64,000 nt of DNA from Podarcis vaucheri. Taxonomy: Eukaryota. The DNA lies in the NCBI GenBank assembly GCA_965113315.1, contig OZ220367.1, one strand, 5' to 3'. The position numbers and the translations under genes were made by a program. Positions 10,348-56,810 of this stretch are shown here, piece after piece. Every line of letters begins with the position of its first letter. Position 1 is the first letter of the stretch. The notes below the pieces were generated by a model, which saw only the letters and a program-made list of their open reading frames with translations, was not told where the DNA came from and did no database searches.

Positions 10348-10986
10348 GTATAAACACTCCACAAGCAAATAAGGATAAATGCAGAATGAATGCTCATTAT
10401 CATATAACTGCTCCATAAACCATTCAGAAAGAATGCTAAATAAAAACTGGACATAAGCTTTGTGCAAGCAAGTCAAGATGAACGCTCAATTAACAGGTCC
10501 TCTGGAGATGCCCATATTTAGACATACAGCCCCCAAAGTTTAAGAAATCTGATACATATGGTGTTTGATATTTTTTGTTTATCTGTTTACTTATTTATTG
10601 TGAAATATTTACAGGCTGCCTTTTTCCAAGCACAACAGTTTCACATAGTGTTTATTTATGTCTCTGTGATGTGTCTCTTTAAGGAAATTCAGCAGCTACC
10701 TTCCCAATTGTTTTAAAATGTTGAAAATATACATATAGGCTTTCATCATATTGAGGAAAGGAAGAAGGTTCAGCAGAATTCTCTGTCACACTCTGGTTTA
10801 GTCTACCACTGACAAGTGGAAGAATCCCTGAAAACATGGTCCCACCACTAAGCCCTTCCTGATCAAGGAAGTAGAAGATTGGGTTAGTATCTGGACTAAT
10901 TCTTGTTAAAAGGAGGATGCTTATCAAACAATGTGGCATTGATTAATGCTAGCTGACTGTGTATATTATGTAGTGATTTATTAATT

Positions 10987-11336
10987 TTGTTGTCGTTTAG
11001 TCGTGTCCGACTCTTCGTGACCCCATGGACCAGAGCACGCCAGGCACTCCTGTCTTCCACTGCCTCCCTCAGTTTGGTCAAACTCATGTTGGTAGCTTTG
11101 AGAACACTATCCAACCATCTCATCCTCTGTCGTCCCCTTCTCCTTGTGCCCTCCATCTTTCCCAACATCAGGGTCTTTTCCAGGGAGTCTTCTCTTCTCA
11201 TGAGGTGGCCAAAGTATTGGAGCCTCAGCTTCACGATCTGTCCTTCCAGTGAGCACTCAGGGCTAATTTCCTTAAGAATGGATATGTTTGATCTTCTTGC
11301 AGTCCATGGACTCTCAAGAGTCTCCTCCAGCAGCAC
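10987..11336 (-). mobile_element. BovB (RTE) LINE 3' fragment
   Basis: Translates to PWTARRSNISILKEISPECSLEGQIVKLRLQYFGHLMRREDSLEKTLMLGK...WRALVHGVTKSRTRL. Short (CAA) tail. Matches the 3' end of 20526-21910. Confidence 0.95.
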
Positions 11337-12385
11337 TATTGATATTTGAAATGGATTATATTATATTATATTACATTATATTATATTATATTAGTTCTTC
11401 GTCTCATGTATTGTGAGCTGCTTGTGGGAAAGTGGCATATAAATAAACTAACGAGTAATGAATGAATTGTAGAATCCTAATAGCTAAGAATGAATCTCCA
11501 TCTTTGGAATGAGATACCCATCACAACATGGAAATATCCCTCCAGCTAAGGAGAGAGAAAAAACAACTTTCCATTTGATTGGACAAAAATAACAAAAAAC
11601 AAGTAGAGTGAGTGAGATGAGAATTGTAGTTGGGGTTAGATAAACTCAGCTGCAACTTTTTGGGAGTTGTATCTACTCTCTGGGAATCTGCTAGAACACC
11701 CACAGATTTGCTATTACTGAATAAGTACCTATTTGCTTCCACTATTCTCTTCTTATAAAGCAAACCTACTATGAAGACCCTACAAGTCTGTTGTTCTCTC
11801 TCGTCAGCACTTAGAAGGGGGGAATGTATTAAAGTGAAGTGAAATTCCTTTTTCCATTCAGCAACAATCTGCCCCAGCCAGGTATCAAAAGTTTAGGAAG
11901 TACTTGTTTGGAATATACTCGTAGCAAATAATAGGAAAAACATTCCAAATATGATTAAAATGAATGCATTTATTTTAAAAGCCTCATCCAGAGAAGCAGC
12001 ATTAAATTACTTTGATGCACTAACGCAGAATTACTTGGGACTTAGATATGGGATATAAGCTCAGTTACCATAACTTAGTATTCACAGTACATAATTTTAG
12101 TTGATCACAGTCTAACCAAATGTATATTTAATCTTAATCCTTTAGCTGCCTTGGGTAGCTGGCAAATTGATAAAACAAGATCCAGAGACAAATTACAAAA
12201 TTGTGTTCCTGGAAAATAGGTTTCCATATATTAAAAAGCTTGTGAAATCACTGGAGTTGATTTTGTTATGCATATTATTTAATGGTCAATAATGGGTTTA
12301 AAGGAGTGCTACTTTTATGGGCTTATTATACACTTGAATGGAAGCATCTAAGGGGAAACTGAAACTGGAAAGAAGATGGAACTTT

Positions 12386-20346: not shown

Positions 20347-20500
20347 TAGTACTTTTTTTCTTTAAAAAAATGTTTAGTGGTACTCTTTTTTCCTACTCAT
20401 ATTGAAATACTGCCCCTCAATGAGGCCAAACTTAGATTCACAAAATGTTTAGGGTATGCTTACCCCTGCGTCCCGTCCCCCCCCCAGAAAAAAAGCACTG
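20347..20500. mobile_element. hAT MITE
   Basis: Perfect TSD gatttacc (20339-20346, 20501-20508). TIR tagtactttttttct / agaaaaaaagcactg. Related to 30449-30973 in reverse orientation. Confidence 0.85.
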
Positions 20501-20525
20501 GATTTACCTGGCAGTAACTCTCTCT

Positions 20526-21910
20526 GCACACTCAATATGCCAGCAAGTTTGGAAAACTCAGCAGTGGCCAGAGGATTGGAGAAGATCAGTCTACATCCCA
20601 ATCCCAAAGAAGGGCAGTGCCAAAGAATGCTCCAACTACTGCACAATTGCACTCATTTCACACGCTAGCAAGGTTATGCTTAAAATTCTACAAGGAAGGC
20701 TCAAGCAGTATGTGGACCGAGAACTCCCAGAAGTGCAAGCTGGATTTAGAAGAGGCAGAGGAACCAGAGACCAAATTGCAAACATGCGCTGGATTATGGA
20801 GAAAGCTAGAGAGTTCCAGAAAGACATCTACTTTTGCTTCATTGACTATGCAAAAGCCTTTGACTGTGTCGACCACAGCAAACTATGGCAAGTTCTTGAA
20901 GAAATGGGAGTGCCTGATCACCTCATCTGTCTCCTGAGAAATCTCTATGTGGGACAAGAAGCTACAGTTAGAACTGGATATGGAACAACTGATTGGTTCA
21001 AAATTGGGAAAGGAATACGGCAAGGCTGCTTGTTTATTTAACTTATATGCAGAATTCATCATGCGAAAGGCTGGGCTGGATGAATCCCAAGCTGGAATTA
21101 AGATTGCCAGAAGAAATATCAACAACCTCAGATATGCAGATGACACAACCTTGATGGCAGAAAGTGAGGAGGAATTAAAGAACCTTTTAATGAGGCTGAA
21201 AGAGGAGAGTGCAAAATATGGTCTGAAGCTCAACATCAAAAAAACGAAGATCATGGCCACTGGGCCCATCACCTCCTGGCAAATAGAAGGGGAAGAAATG
21301 GAGGCAGTGAGAGATTTTACATTCTTGGGCTCCATGATCACTGCAGATGGTGACAGCAGTCACGAAATTAAAAGACGCCTGCTCCTTGGGAGAAAGGCAA
21401 TGGAAAACCTAGACAGCATCTTAAAAAGCAGAGACATCACCTTGCCAACAAAGGTTCGTATAGTTAAAGCCATGGTTTTCCCAGTAGTGATGTATGGAAG
21501 TGAGAGCTGGAGCATAAAGAAGGCTGATCGCTGAAGAATTGATGCTTTTGAATTATGGTGCTGGAGGAAACTCTTGAGAGTCCCATGGACTGCAAGATCA
21601 AACGCATCCATTCTTAAGGAAATTAGCCCTGAGTGCTCACTGGAAGGACAGATCGTGAAGCTGAGGCTCCAATACTTTGGCCACCTCATGAGAAGAGAAG
21701 ACTCCCTGGAAAAGACCCTGATGTTGGGGGGAAATGAGGGCACAAGGAGAAGGGGACGACAGAGGACGAGATGGTTGGACAGTGTTCTTGAAGCTACAAA
21801 CATGAGTCTGACCAAACTGCAGGAGACAGTGGACTGCCTGGCGTGCTCTGGTCCATGGGGTCACGAAGAGTCGGACACGACTAAATGACTAAACAACAAC
21901 AACAACAACA
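20526..21910 (+). mobile_element. BovB (RTE) LINE, 5'-truncated, RT pseudogene
   Basis: RT motifs QAGFRRGRGTRDQI, FIDYAKAFD, G.RQGC and YADD (21133-21144). Frameshifting deletion near 21030, TGA at 21532-21534, (CAA)n tail, 10-bp TSD aactctctct (20516-20525, 21911-21920). Confidence 0.97.
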
Positions 21911-37714: not shown

Positions 37715-38445
37715 CCGTATTTTTCACTCCATAAGACGCTCCTGACCATAAGACACACCTAGTTTTTAGAGAGGGGAAAGCAAGGGGGGGGGAATCTGCG
37801 CAGAGCATGTAAGCAGCTCTCGCTTTTCTAGCTTTAAAGCAAGCAAAGCGAGAGCCGCTTACGTGGCTTCTCTCCCGCTTCGAGCAGCTCTCACTTGACT
37901 TGCCCATCCCTCCTCCCGCCTCGCTGTAAAAGAGGAGGAGACGCCACCAGGACAGGTGCTTGGCTTGCTTTATAGTGAGGCGGGAGGAGAGATGGGCAAG
38001 CAAAGTGAGAGCTGAACAAAGCGGGACAGAAGCCATGTAAGAGGCTCTCGCTTTGCTTGCTCCCATCCATCCCTCCTCCCACTTCGCTGAGAAGCCCGCA
38101 GAGCAAGAGGCGCTGCACAGCTCTTGCTCTTGCACTGCTGCCTTCAGTAGAGCAGTGCAGCACCTCTTGTTCTGCTGGCTTCCCAGAAAAGCAGGAGGAG
38201 GGACAGACAGGAGCCCTTACACGGACCCCCTTCTGTCCCTCTTCCCGCTTCGCTGCGAAGCCAGCAGAGCAAGAGCAACAGACGGGAGCTATGGCTCCAG
38301 CTGCGGAGGCATCTCTCAGCTCGTGACTGCAGCGGTAGCCAAGGGATCCCTCTGCTGCCCAGTGCATTCGCTCCATAGACGCACAGACATGTCCCCTTAA
38401 TTTTTAGGAGGAAAAAAAGTGCGTCTTATGGAGTGAAAAATACGG
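37715..38445. mobile_element. Tc2/pogo-like non-autonomous transposon (731 bp)
   Basis: TA|ccgtatttttcactccataagacgc ... gcgtcttatggagtgaaaaatacgg|TA (25-bp perfect TIR). GC-rich interior. Confidence 0.92.
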
Positions 38446-45226: not shown

Positions 45227-45266
45227 TGCTGTTCAGGCCCCTCATAAATGAGGGGCCTGAACAGCA
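45227..45266. repeat. Perfect inverted repeat, 19-bp arms, 2-nt spacer
   Basis: tgctgttcaggcccctcat-aa-atgaggggcctgaacagca. Confidence 0.97.
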
Positions 45267-45364: not shown

Positions 45365-47001
45365 GGCCTTTTGGAGGGCTCAGTGGTGGAGCATGCTTTT
45401 AATCAGAAATGCAAACAAATTTGCATATAAGTTTTTCCATCTAAACTGGTAGTATGAGGTAGGATCCACATCAAAGAAAAGGGAAGAAGTACGCACATTC
45501 TGTTTACCTATTTTCCTCATTCTCTGACTATCGCTATGCTAATCTGTCACAAATAAACTTGAAAACCTCATTGTCTTGTTCATTAGCCAGAGCAAGGAAG
45601 AGCCACCCATTACCTTGGCATCCTAGCAGACAATATCAAGAGTCCTGCCAGGAAAAAGGTTTCAGAGCTCTCCCTTGCCTCTCCCTTTCTATACCGCTGT
45701 TGTCATATATATTTTTCACCTTTCTGTTGCTCCTCCACAACAGGCCAGCATAGGCCATGTATGCTTTCTAGCTTACTGCGAAATAACACAAGCACCATGT
45801 TGGATGTCTGTGTTGTCTTTGTCACCACTGTGGACCAGCTCTAACTCACTCAGCCAAGCTATGTGGCCTTGCCCTGGCCATTTCCCATTCCTTTAGTGCC
45901 ACTGGAGCTGTGACAGGCTGTCTTTGTTGGACTCTTCACAGGCTGGGCTCATGTCACTCCATCATATTATTGATGGAGAACCTCAATATGATGGATTTTC
46001 CTATCAGATTTTGATGCATCAGGTTATCTGTGCTGGTTGCCCGAGGCATTTCTGACCAGATCCTTGGACTTGCTGGTGCAGACTGTAAAGTATAATGAGA
46101 ACTGGAGAAGGTTCACCATTGAGACTGTACTTGTACATAGTGACTCTGAGAACCTGGCTCAACAGGGAACATCTGAGATTTCATGCTTGGGTAATTTCAT
46201 GCTTGGGAATTCAAGCTAGGTTTACTACACTGCCTCAGAAAGCACCTCAGCTAATACTAACCGTGTCCAAACAAATCCTGAGCATCCACAATTACTGTTT
46301 TGCTTTCATTCATTTGCAAACAAAATCTCCATGCTCCTGTTTTTCGCTGGCCAGTGTGGGCCATATAATCCACAGATGCCAGAAGTGTATGTAGTCCATT
46401 CATTTCATTGGCTCCCATCGCCCTACATGTGCCAACTGAGGCTAGCAATCCGTGTTTCTGATGGGATTTCGTCCACAAAGGCTTATGACATGATAAATCT
46501 GCCAGTCTTTTGAGGCGTCACACAAATCTATTTCTTGTGTTAAGAGCATTCAGGCAGTTTAAAGCTGAATTGCAGCATCAGACACTTCCAATGTGTTTTG
46601 GAGTTTCAAACAAGAACATTTGATTCAGGGTCAAATCGTTCCAGATTAGTTATACAATTATAATGGGTTTCCCCTGCTTCTCTTTATGAATCATTTATAT
46701 ACTCATTTATCTACACAATTTCTCTCAATGGTTTCTGACATACCAGTGGATGCAGGCTTTCCACAAACTAGTTCCTTGATTATGTTGTTAGCTCTTCCTT
46801 ATTAGATGCTGTATGACTGTGCCCCTTATGTTCCTATATTGCTGCTTATGACTGACTCCTTACGACTAATTAGAAACAGTTATACAAATATGTATAACTG
46901 AATGGTACATGTTACAGATAGGTAGCCGTGTTGGTCTGCCATAGTCAAAATAAAAAAAATCCTTCCAGTAGCACCTTAAAGACCAACTAAGTTAGTTCTT
47001 G

Positions 47002-47039
47002 GTATGAGCTTTCGTGTGCATGCACACTTCTTCAGATAC
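47002..47039 (-). ncRNA. Minimal type I hammerhead ribozyme motif (left arm)
   Basis: Minus strand GUAU-CUGAAGA-A-GUGUGCAUGCACAC-GAAA-GC-UC-AUAC. Confidence 0.8.
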
Positions 47040-47208
47040 ACTGAAACAGAAGTTGCCAGACCCTTCTATATAGTGTAAGACAGTCGTTAAGAGTCGTCAA
47101 CAGGCTCATCTCAGCTATCTGCCAATCTCCCATTCCCACCACCCTTCTGAGTAATACCCCTCCCCACCTTCTCACTATATAGAAGGATCTGGCAACTTCT
47201 GTTTCAGT

Positions 47209-47246
47209 GTATCTGAAGAAGTGTGCGTGCACACGAAAGCTCATAC
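47209..47246 (+). ncRNA. Minimal type I hammerhead ribozyme motif (right arm)
   Basis: GUAU-CUGAAGA-A-GUGUGCGUGCACAC-GAAA-GC-UC-AUAC. Stem I GUAU/AUAC, stem II GUGUG/CACAC, palindromic AGCU at stem III. Confidence 0.8.
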
Positions 47247-48400
47247 CAAGAACTAACTTAGTTGGTCTTTAAGGTGCTACTGGAAGGAATGTTTTTATTT
47301 TGAATGGTACATAACTGTCATGTACCAACATAGCCAGCCATGGCAACGTTTTATGGAGCAAATCTATCCTGGAATGGAGTGTGACCATTCTGATCCCATA
47401 GTTCAGTTCATTATCCTGTAAACTAGTGAAAGTTTTTGTGGTACTTCCAGAGCAGGAGCAGCAACAGTCCTGCTCAATCTAATCATCCCATTTGCCCATG
47501 ATTTCTTCTTGTGAATATTTTACAGTGCAGTTCTATACAGTAAGGCTGCATTATTAGCTACATTTATAGCACAATCCCATGAATGTCTACTCAGAAGTAA
47601 AGCACATACTTCCACCTAAGTGAGTATAGGATTGCAGGTTTTGTTTCTGGAAACATGGCATATATATTAAGATGCAAATAAGCAAGTCTGTCATGATTAC
47701 ATAGGGGTGAAAAGGAAATGCTTAAGCGTGACTCACTAATGCAAAAAGAATGGCTTTGTTTTCCATCTTTAATGTCAGCAGATATATGAGTGAAGTGGAA
47801 GGCATATGGCCAACAGCACATTCTACTGCATATTTGAAGTTTAGACAAGCTTTAATAATCTGCCTCTTTCTGGAATTGTGTTCCTTGAATATAGAAGCAA
47901 AAAAACAAATTTCAAAAGGGTTTGGGAACATTCTCCCCAGTTAGGCAAATGTGATGTTCCATCTGGCTGCAAATATGTTTATATATTTTAACCTGAGATT
48001 TTAATGCTGGTTTAAGTAAACCAGTTTACTTGGCAATAGAGCAACAACAACAAGCAACTTATTTGACCAAGCTATTGAGCTCCACACATGTTTTTTCTCC
48101 ATTGGCAAATGACTATCTGTATGTCAGATTTCCCCTCCATACCAGATAAAACAGGCTTATCCCTGTGAAAACCCAATTAACTTATATGGTGTCCTGGCAC
48201 ATTGTGTCGTTCATAGTGGATGGACTTTCAAAAGAATCCTAATTCGTAGGATGCAACTCTACATGTACATACTTGGGAGTTAGTCCCATTGAACTCAAAA
48301 GAACTTAATTCTGAATAGACATTGATAAGATTGCATTGTTAAGTTATGCAATCCTATGCCCACTTGCCTGCCATTAAGCTCAGTACGATTGACTTCTTGG

Positions 48401-52348: not shown

Positions 52349-53421
52349 CAGTGGTACCCCACAAGACGAACGCCTCGCAAGATGGAAAACCCGCTAGACG
52401 AAAGGGTTTTCCGTTTTGGAGGCGCTTCGCAAAACGAATTTCCCTATGGGCTTCCTTCGCAAGACGAAAGCCCATAGGGAAATCTCCGGGACAGCGGGGA
52501 AGCGCAGCGCGTCTTCCCCACTGTCCTCGGACCTCCTCCGAAGGCTGGCAGCGGGAGGAGGGCTCTCCTCCCGCCGCCAGCCTTCGGGGCAGCCTTTCAA
52601 AGGCTGGCGGTGGGGCGGGAAGCCCTCCTCCCACCGCCAGCCTTCAGGGCAGCCTTCCAAAGGCTGGCAGTGGGGCAGAGAGCCCTCCTCCCGCCGCCAG
52701 CCTTCGGGGCAGCCTTCCAAAGGCTGGCAGTGGGGCAGAGAGCCTTCCTCCCGCCGCCAGCCTTCGGGGCAGCCTTCCGAAGGCTGGCAGTGGGGCGGGA
52801 AGCCCTCCTCCCGCCGCCAGCCTTCGGGGCAGCCTTCTGAAGGCTGGCGGTGGGGCGGGAAGCCCTCCTCCCGCCGCCAGCCTTCGGGGCAGCCTTCTGA
52901 AGGCTGGCGGTGGGGCGGGAAGCCCTCCTCCCGCCGCCAGCCTTCGGGGCAGCCTTCCGAAGGCTGGCGGTGGGGCGGAGAGCTCTCTGCCCCACCGCCA
53001 GCCTTCGGAAGGCTGCTCCGAAGGCTGGCGGTGGGGCGGAGAGAGCTTCTCCCCGCGCCAGCCTTCGGATGGCTGTCCTGAAGACTTGCGGTGGGAGGAG
53101 GGTTTTCCTTCCCACCGCCAACATTCAGAATGCTGTTCTGAATGTTGGCGGTGGGGAGGAAAAACCCTCCTCCCACCGCAAGCCCCGGGAACAGAGGAGA
53201 AGCGCTGCGCCCCTTCCCCTCTGTTCCCGTACCTGTCCTGAAGGCTTGCGGTGGGGAGAAAAGCCCTTCTCCGCACCGCCAGCCTGGCAAGCGGTTTCCA
53301 TAGGAACGCATTAATTGATTTTCAATGCATTCCTATGGGAAACCGTGCTTTGCAAGACGAAAAACTCGCAAGAAGAAAAAACTTGCGGAACGAATTAATT
53401 TCGTCTTGTGAGGCACCACTG
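52349..53421. mobile_element. Tc1/mariner MITE family B, long copy with internal minisatellite
   Basis: TA|cagtggtaccccacaagacgaa ... ttcgtcttgtgaggcaccactg|TA. Confidence 0.92.
52535..53290. repeat. 60-bp GC-rich palindromic minisatellite
   Basis: Unit agccctcctcccgccgccagccttcggggcagccttccgaaggctggcggtggggcggga. Seven near-perfect units at 52561-52980, with diverged units after them. Confidence 0.95.
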
Positions 53422-55274: not shown

Positions 55275-56810
55275 AATAATAAATTTTATTTATACCCCGC
55301 CCTTCCCGGTTCAGAAACGGGGCTCAGGCCGGCTAACAACAAATTTAAAACACTTAATTGTAATACAACATAGAAACAGAATAAAAGCATGAGTAATAAT
55401 AAAATTCAAAGTTCAAAAATCAATTTGGGGAAAATCCATCCAATAAGCATTAGATAGTCACCAGGGCTAGCTGGCTGAATTAGCCCTACTTGGGCCAGCG
55501 AGGAGGCCAGGGGAGAATTAGCTATGGGGTCTCAGAGCGGGTAATCTTCATAAAAAGGAAGGGGGAGGAAAGAGAAGGGAAGAGAAATAAAAGTTAAGGC
55601 TGAATTCAAATTAAAGGCCAGGCGGAATAGCTCTGTCTTACAGGCCTGGCGGAAAGAGGTTAAATCCTGAAGGGCCCTGGTCTCATGGGACAGAGCATTC
55701 CACCAAGTCGGAGCCATCACTGACAAGGCCCTGGCCCTGGTGGAGGATAGTCTGACTTCCTTAGGGCCCGGGACCCCTAAACTATGGTTATTCATGGACC
55801 TTAAGGTCCTCTGCGGGGCATACCAGGAGAGGCGGTCCCATAAATATGTGGGCCCTAAGCCACAAAGGGCTTTAAAGGTCAAAACCAGCACTTTGAACCT
55901 GACCCTATACTCCACTGGGAGCCAGTGCAACTGGTAAAGCACTGGGTGAATATGCTCCCATGGCAGGGACCCCGTGAGAAGCCTCGCTGCAGCATTCTGC
56001 ACCCACTGGAGTTTCTGGGACAGTTTCAAGGGCAGCCCCGCATAGAGCGAATTACAGTAGTCAAGCCTAGAGGTGACCGTTGCATGGATCACTGTGGCCA
56101 GGTTGGGGCGGGAAAGGTAAGGGACCAACTGCTTAATGTGGCGAAGATAGAAAAATGTCGCCTTAGCTGTTGCTGCAACCTGCGCCTCCATGGAAAGGGA
56201 GGCGTCAAGGATTACACCCAAACTCTTAACGGAAGGCACTGGCACTAATTGGACCCCTGCAAGAGAAGGGAGTTGGTCCCTCATCCCCATGCCATCCTGA
56301 CCTAGCCATAGGACCTCTGTCTTCAAAGGATTTAGTTTCAATCGGCTCCCACGAAAACCATCCAGACACAGCTTCCAAGCATCTGGCCGAGTCGGTGTGG
56401 CCATCCATCAGTGGATAGAGCTGAGTGTCAACAGCAAGTTGGTGACAGCCCAGCCCAAAGCTCCAGACAATCTGGGCAAGGGGGTGCATAAAGATGTTTA
56501 AAAGCATCGGGGAAAGGATTGCACCCTGTGGCACTCCACACACCAAGGAATGGCGCAATGACATCTCCCTCCCTAATGCCACCCTCTGTCCCTAACCAGA
56601 GATAAAAGAGCAAAGCCATTGTCAGGCTGTGCCCTGTATCCCCACATCGGTGAGGCAGTGGTCCAGAAGATCATGATTGACCATATCAAAGGCTGCTCAC
56701 AGATCTAAGAATCAGCAATCCCGACCAGCCTCGATCCAGTTGTCTACGGAGGTCATCTGTTAGACGACTCTGGTCGCCCTCGGTCCCGAAACCAGGACGG
56801 AAACCGGACT
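55275..56810 (-). mobile_element. L2 LINE, 5'-truncated, RT pseudogene
   Basis: Fragments in three frames: FQSGFRPGFGTE, GVPQGAILSP, degenerate (Y)ADDTQLY, LKLNP.KTE, SRLDYCN, LHWLPV..R..FK. Confidence 0.93.

Follow-up and report, generated by a model that had tools for sequence, protein, structure and literature searches.

Does a long hairpin with a hammerhead ribozyme motif in each arm act as a regulatory RNA switch, or is it a mark left by transposition? The question is raised by a 390-nt insert (46911-47300) in a 64 000-nt stretch of the Podarcis vaucheri genome (GenBank assembly GCA_965113315.1, contig OZ220367.1), below referred to as the window. An earlier note, made from the letters of the window, described the insert as a Penelope-like insertion and proposed that RNA read through it switches between self-cleavage and long double-stranded RNA (dsRNA). 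Our analysis speaks for a common scar of insertion as the likely answer, and against an RNA switch. Very probably, the insert is made of two 5′-truncated ends of a Penelope-like element (PLE) placed head-to-head by double priming in a young insertion, with the hammerheads predicted to be passengers locked in a 131-bp hairpin. Identity of the insert as a PLE stub is highly probable; the two-priming step is less secure, yet still rather probable.

The inverted arms of the hairpin, 46945-47075 and 47173-47303, are 131 nt each, 97% complementary and separated by 97 nt; they are mismatched at four places (46957/47291, 46959/47289, 47021/47227 and 47061/47187). The insert is flanked by a target-site duplication (TSD) of exactly 12 bp, 46899-46910 and 47301-47312, with no further extension possible; the chance of such a duplication, offsets of ±10 being allowed, is ∼3e-5. 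A tail is present on the left side only (46911-46944, minus strand); it is 34 nt long, and assigning to the target the three bases common with the right TSD copy would make it 37 nt. Thus, the arms of ∼130 bp with about four mismatches, the 97-bp gap and the 12-bp TSD of the earlier note all agree with the sequence, and its 35-bp extension fits the 34-37 nt ambiguity.

Read evidence came from four sequencing runs out of 24 candidates: DNA runs X1 and X10 from two relatives, and RNA runs X21 and X23. The proposed search for an empty site gave the exact pre-insertion junction in both DNA runs: one contig in each joined 46898 directly to 47301, with the TSD present as a single copy. Therefore, the insertion (390 nt plus the 12-bp TSD) is young, missing at this position in both relatives examined, and comes from a high-copy family. 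The flanks differed from the window by 4 and 5 substitutions per 859 nt, in addition to one 3-nt indel common to X1 and X10. That the family is very large was seen from its summed depth, ∼1e5-2e6 versus 10-13 in the flanks, a figure that is not a copy number; within the 64-kb window no second copy of the unit was found. As to the target itself, a perfect 10-bp inverted repeat with a 4-nt loop (46877-46900) stands beside it and ends 2 nt inside the left TSD, while an 11-bp, 91% inverted repeat (47305-47327) overlaps the right TSD; perfect inverted repeats with arms ≥10 and loops ≤8 number only seven distinct cases in the 64 kb. A cruciform-prone target is possible, on the evidence of this one site.

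The insert can be divided into two copies of the element's pseudo-long terminal repeat (pLTR), both 5′-truncated. The left copy (46911-47075, 165 nt) is inverted, with its sense on the minus strand, and it alone has the tail; the right copy (47076-47300, 225 nt, plus strand) is direct, has no tail, and it alone has the 97 upstream nucleotides, 47076-47172. These had been called a spacer; the length was right, the role was not, since in other family copies this sequence continues the right copy upstream. We saw it contiguous with the right arm in contigs over 47125-47233 and in a protein match, P0002, extending over 47128-47244 in one frame; the 97 nt belong to the plus-strand copy as its upstream portion, and there is no linker. 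The letters at 47111 and 47128 were found in all and in about half of the X1 depth, respectively, and were nearly absent in X10, which suggests a lineage-specific young subfamily. The two copies meet at 47074-47075, likely a 2-nt microhomology common to both: in X1 and X21 the loose ends that precede 47080-81 carry the family's upstream sequence, and here the window copy is the shorter one by 7 nt. Each copy has a predicted pLTR core promoter, a TATA-like box (47176-81) followed by an Inr-like (initiator-like) motif with A at 47206 (47176-47208 on the plus strand, mirrored at 47040-47072 on the minus strand), the distance between the two motifs being 30 nt in both copies.

Several features of insertions of endonuclease-containing (EN+) PLEs were observed: direct and inverted 5′-truncated pLTR copies, a 30-40-nt tail at one end only, a hammerhead motif inside the pLTR, and a short TSD at an AT-rich target (8 of the 12 TSD bases are A or T). 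Published EN+ PLE insertions (PMC3846280; PMC8557442; for Drosophila virilis, PMC2377424) have the same plan, a 5′-truncated direct copy with an adjacent inverted copy placed head-to-head, a tail of 30-40 nt at one end and a short TSD, as well as TATA- and Inr-like pLTR motifs (PMC3846280); unlike them, the 390-nt window unit lacks any open reading frame (ORF) body, and no ORF was found in it. An inverted pLTR with a tail and a TSD is described as a typical PLE structure (PMC3846280, PMC8557442), and Schistosoma has been reported to have pairs of minimal hammerhead ribozymes (min-HHRs) on opposite strands, separated by 100-700 bp (PMC4209133); every structural element of the insert is already described in the literature.

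The hammerhead motifs were borne out in both arms by core, stems and AGCU, being of minimal type I and oppositely oriented. In the right copy (47209-47246, plus strand) stem I of 4 bp (47209-12/47243-46) is followed by the core 47213-19, an extra A at 47220, stem II of 5 bp (47221-25/47230-34, with G10.1-C11.1), GAAA at 47235-38, AGCU at 47238-41 and C17 at 47242, after which the cut is predicted. The mirror motif in the left copy (47002-47039, minus strand) has the 5′ strand of stem I starting at 47039, the core running from 47035 and C17, with the predicted cut after it, at 47006. The suggested search with covariance models produced no hammerhead match in Rfam at E ≤ 10 (five chance matches in a wider scan, none in a narrow one); therefore, the ribozyme call rests on the fit to the published min-HHR consensus (PMC4209133), which holds feature by feature: the CUGANGA/GAAA/UH core, the extra base after position 9, G10.1-C11.1 and the palindromic 15.2-16.2. 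The closest entry in that study was the painted-turtle min-HHR, which shares the 4-bp stem I, CUGAAGA with the extra A, the 5-bp stem II opening with G-C and the palindromic AGCU without loop III; it differs in having a 7-nt loop II (a 4-nt palindrome here) and U17 (C17 here), and it does not have the 14-nt stem-II palindrome of the window copy. No lizard or Anolis row was present in the searched supplementary table of PMC4209133.

How the two copies were brought together is best seen from the rest of the family. The counts of family ends and joints given here are those among the ones listed, the loose ends and joints being more numerous. Loose ends with unlike flanks piled up at 46911 (at least 52 and at least 45 contigs; 234 and 76 reads) and at 46946-52 (at least 54, and at least 37 plus at least 24 contigs); these are the two ends used by the window copy. 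The first, the outer end of the tail, is likely the distal start of reverse transcription; it has no microhomology with the target, because other copies continue beyond it with letters unlike the TSD at 46909-10 in the read data. The second agrees with the end of the right copy (mirror 47296-47302), where the first three bases of the right TSD copy also fit the element in sequence and reads, a possible priming microhomology. All 15 joints listed, out of 132, link left arm to right arm with varied centres, and P0002 turned out to be another head-to-head family copy with a different centre. Because family copies have many different centres, truncated cDNAs were likely put together into the hairpin during insertion, and copying of a ready unit is less likely. 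Thus, of the earlier statement that the unit was mobilised in trans, the absence of an ORF stands, but the rest needs other wording.

Protein searches for a parent PLE, another check that had been proposed, gave two matches and, in a wider round, six, and led to other short family copies: four of the six matches were true ones. P0002-P0005 were rejected as parent ORFs, being spurious ORF calls over short copies; P0006-P0007, unrelated repeat proteins, were dropped as relatives. In P0004 and P0005, family copies with tails, nearly the same unrelated sequence stands upstream, probably another repeat used as target. A search of genome contigs for related loci returned one irrelevant bacterial locus with matching residues outside the element, and no viral contigs; a scan with a 19-nt motif gave no viral matches and six metagenome matches, all of which were unrelated chance hits of 19-24 nt. 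A remnant of the parent may still be visible in the window: the frame that starts with the ATG in loop II and runs 111 nt to the end of the tail (46911-47021, minus strand) is interrupted by one stop, the position of which is a sense codon in 32-43% of the summed family DNA depth and in all four true protein matches; the parent ORF may have begun here.

The sequence of events could be as follows. A PLE protein made elsewhere would cut the target with a 12-nt stagger; the top-strand end would prime cDNA synthesis at the distal start, giving 165 nt with the tail included, and the bottom-strand end would prime at the proximal start, giving 225 nt with no tail, with probably two RNA molecules being used in all; the two cDNA ends would then meet at the 2-nt microhomology, and gap filling would make the TSD. 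With one cDNA primed by each 3′ end of the staggered cut, the outcome would be precisely the structure seen here. PAc, the Poseidon element of Anolis carolinensis, provides biochemical precedent: its protein, a predicted dimer, nicks and extends both strands and initiates reverse transcription internally, at two positions on either border of the tail, 111-118 nt into the ORF (PMC11167929). By the features described for it, PAc is similar to the window copy in the two starts bounding the tail, in the start codon inside the hammerhead, in a reverse-transcription start ∼111 nt into the frame and in having no RNA ends at the cut. The two differ in the place of the ATG: in PAc it marks the beginning of stem II, 26 nt away from the cut, and in the window copy it falls within loop II, at a distance of 16 nt. 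The mismatches of the arms bear on the number of templates: 4 were observed versus 0.6-0.8 expected from flank divergence (P 0.004-0.008, or 0.02-0.04 if two poly-T changes are counted as one event), an excess which mildly favours two template RNAs.

A number of points weigh against this reconstruction. The filled allele had no independent reads among the four runs. A parent with reverse transcriptase (RT) and GIY-YIG was found neither by the protein searches nor among the genome and viral contigs. Given an older insertion or a faster mutation rate, the mismatch excess would weaken to P 0.03-0.43, and RT errors or errors of hairpin assembly could add mismatches too. This exact centre may occur at other loci, the joints listed being a part of the whole, so that its uniqueness is not proven. 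The painted-turtle motif is not marked as PLE-linked in the table of PMC4209133; for head-to-head copies self-priming on an antisense template was favoured in PMC3846280. Finally, the predicted folds described below, on which locking of the ribozymes depends, come from calculations without protein or tertiary contacts.

Among the alternatives, the one that survives best, though we consider it unlikely, is inversion from a single cDNA, by self-priming or fold-back, or on an antisense template (the Arkhipova 2013 model). The left copy stops 2 nt past an 8-nt palindrome, the TATA-like box, and palindromes at inverted junctions have been reported (PMC3846280). However, the tail is present only on the left and the 97 nt only on the right; therefore, neither cDNA could template the other by fold-back, and a simple fold-back cannot supply copies each of which has sequence of its own. 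The number of arm mismatches is also above the expectation for identical arms.

Next, one could think that the insert is a new divergent promoter, with the two outward TATA/Inr units making RNAs that start with hammerheads; we find this improbable. It would be in line with the equal motif spacing in both copies and with family 5′ ends piled just below the Inr-like motif; also, in D. virilis, transcription downstream of Penelope can be driven by its pLTR (PMC2377424). On the other hand, the promoter of D. virilis Penelope is TATA-less and internal (same source), and no neighbouring gene was found around the insert when 299 ORFs were scanned against Pfam.

Still less credible is the idea of a non-autonomous master element, similar to a miniature inverted-repeat transposable element (MITE) or to a retrozyme, with the 390-nt hairpin being copied whole in trans. 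Such an element would have no coding capacity and its TSD would enclose the whole unit, as is the case here; solo units flanked by pLTRs and mobilised in trans were described (PMC3846280). Against it, family centres vary widely, the family sequence upstream of 47081 differs from the left arm, no contig piece among those listed crosses this centre, and a 131-bp duplex would be a poor RT template. Non-LTR retrozymes (bioRxiv 10.64898/2026.07.22.740005) are also non-coding, PLE-derived and equipped with type I hammerheads, but they form head-to-tail tandems with dimers in cis, whereas in the insert the two copies are joined head-to-head and each strand has a single sense ribozyme. A tandem retrozyme was therefore rejected for this single head-to-head unit with no other copy in the window; a MITE or foldback DNA transposon was rejected as well, given the one-sided tail and the variable centres.

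To judge the switch itself, we considered folding and RNA data. The hairpin is very stable, with predicted energy of −242 kcal/mol for the full unit (z = −26.9 vs 100 shuffles; the fold of the tail is weak, −4 kcal/mol), and the geometry of the arms supports the earlier statement that a read-through transcript would contain one sense ribozyme with its antisense copy and form long dsRNA. Since the ribozymes point outward, the antisense arm is made first in either read-through direction, so that no co-transcriptional window is left for a switch, and adopting the ribozyme fold is predicted to cost 60-69 kcal/mol relative to the ensemble. Taking as ribozyme fold stems I and II formed with the core unpaired, secondary-structure prediction gave a probability of 0.15 in nascent RNA begun at 47206-09 and of 0.017-2e-4 with more upstream pLTR, a drop that arises because upstream sequence pairs with the core; in read-through RNA it was ≤1e-42. 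Read-through RNA would then fold into a long duplex, a substrate of ADAR type, with the ribozyme off, and the ribozyme would be foldable only in RNA begun at the pLTR Inr, immediately before stem I, with a partner RNA or the element's protein still needed.

The RNA runs, of which 12% and 6% were read, are labelled with the species of X10, a run without the insert; because of this shared label and the partial reading they bear on the family and not on this allele. Depth in the flanks was zero in 19/20 and 20/20 bins, 91-96% of placed RNA reads continued into other flanks, and the only pile of RNA ends, eight molecules, was at 47058; at the predicted cut no ends were listed in the two runs. The check for A-to-I editing was done on family RNA. 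Changes A>G and T>C made up 37/66 and 37/78 of variant places in RNA, and 8/26 and 11/30 in DNA (P of the excess 0.004 and 0.077); in X21 they were seen in both orientations. Two adenosines of the sense strand, one in a UAA and the other in a UAG context, were changed in 14-19% of reads of both RNA runs and in <0.15% of DNA depth; ADAR prefers U as the 5′ neighbour. Strand bias was rejected as a proof of editing, for ordinary genomic variants in X23 are strand-biased too. A non-editing change, 47162 C>A, was also RNA-only (136/237 reads), and single highly expressed loci also yield RNA-only, strand-biased changes. With DNA and RNA coming from different animals, editing of family RNA by ADAR is suggested and no more. 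It would agree with Penelope repeats being known as a source of dsRNA: lizard Penelope is massively edited by ADAR, at >40,000 sites (PMC5625713), Xenopus tropicalis Penelope is highly edited (PMC10636886), and small interfering RNAs (siRNAs) arise from inverted Penelope repeats in Drosophila (PMC3681739). The published editing and siRNA data concern the Penelope class or Drosophila, and here there are hints at the level of the family; the proposed Dicer/ADAR substrate is plausible at the level of the family, and the idea is already in the literature. The claim that read-through RNA alternates between self-cleavage and long dsRNA and so regulates a host transcript is hardly credible: intact hammerhead cores, the stable hairpin and the A>G/T>C excess speak for it, and the order in which the arms are made, the cost of the ribozyme fold, the nearly empty flank bins, the absence of ends piled at the cut, the lack of a host exon among the 299 ORFs and the youth of an insertion with no sign of selection speak against it.

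Within the preferred reading, assembly from two primed cDNAs, the hammerheads might still have had a role at the time of insertion. Loose ends of the family also pile up at a third place, 47039 (at least 45 and at least 44 contigs; in X21, 66 reads). The mirror of this position is 47209, where stem I begins, three bases below the Inr-like A; it does not coincide with the hammerhead cut site. The mirrored family depth drops 1.8-fold and 3.3-fold across this edge, partly, as it could be, due to subfamily divergence; 8 of 12 joints listed from a longer set have one side within 47202-47213 or its mirror, and all four true protein matches begin at 47203-47215. In the left copy, stem II and its loop together form a perfect palindrome of 14 nt (47014-47027), which is also present in most family RNA reads (at the mirror site, 171/176 in X23). 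By prediction, pairing between two sense RNAs would use this palindrome and not AGCU: the energies are −29 to −33 kcal/mol for the stem-II duplex, −12.7 for the AGCU double hammerhead and −15.6 for two monomers. In published experiments monomeric min-HHR did not cleave and dimer cleavage was low (PMC4209133); the PAc ribozyme cleaved only with protein, and ends at its cut were absent from RNA-seq (PMC11167929). One could speculate, tentatively, that one ribonucleoprotein, likely with a protein dimer, primes both nicks on two RNAs, that for the most part the family uses as template a short pLTR transcript, uncleaved and started at the Inr, in which the ribozyme escapes an inhibitory hairpin formed with upstream sequence, and that bringing two such RNAs together would supply the dimer partner of the ribozyme and tie cleavage to integration. 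For twin priming by PLEs, two-RNA templates and 5′ ends at the hammerhead edge no dedicated paper surfaced in a search that left subscription journals mostly outside.

The rest of the window was surveyed as well. Its Bov-B, SINE and MITE content is that of lacertid lizard DNA, by appearance. The 299 ORFs compared with Pfam (149 of 242 in the 34-60 kb region, 150 of 312 elsewhere) gave only RT fragments of long interspersed elements (LINEs), though short exons escape such a scan; the fragments are at 20436-21885, 10896-11360 and 55532-56591, with RVT_1 matches at 20436-21531 and 56229-56591, and we take them to be Bov-B-like and L2/CR1-like. Just right of the insertion, degenerate inverted ends (83-89%), 47572-47636 and 48305-48365, stand ∼700 nt apart, possibly an old MITE. 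An isolated near-perfect 40-nt palindrome (45227-45266; 19-bp arms, 2-nt centre) is located 1.6 kb left of the insertion; inverted arms of 93 nt, 88% complementary and separated by 38 nt, occupy 37838-38061; and a GC-rich array of 60-bp units, partly inverted, at 52493-53274 is apparently inside a MITE-bounded element.

As one of very many PLE stubs the locus has little weight alone, though with its clean empty site it might be used as a marker scored by presence or absence. It is of more value as a clear worked example of how PLEs may integrate: the two starts of RT and the nicking of both strands, observed with PAc in vitro, are here connected to the product with inverted pLTR and tail. It also shows why lizard Penelope copies are ready-made dsRNA without the need for a neighbour. 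If two RNAs were indeed used as proposed above, the weak dimer-type hammerheads of animal PLEs would gain a place and a time to act, and the tens of thousands of stubs in lizards would make this proposal testable.

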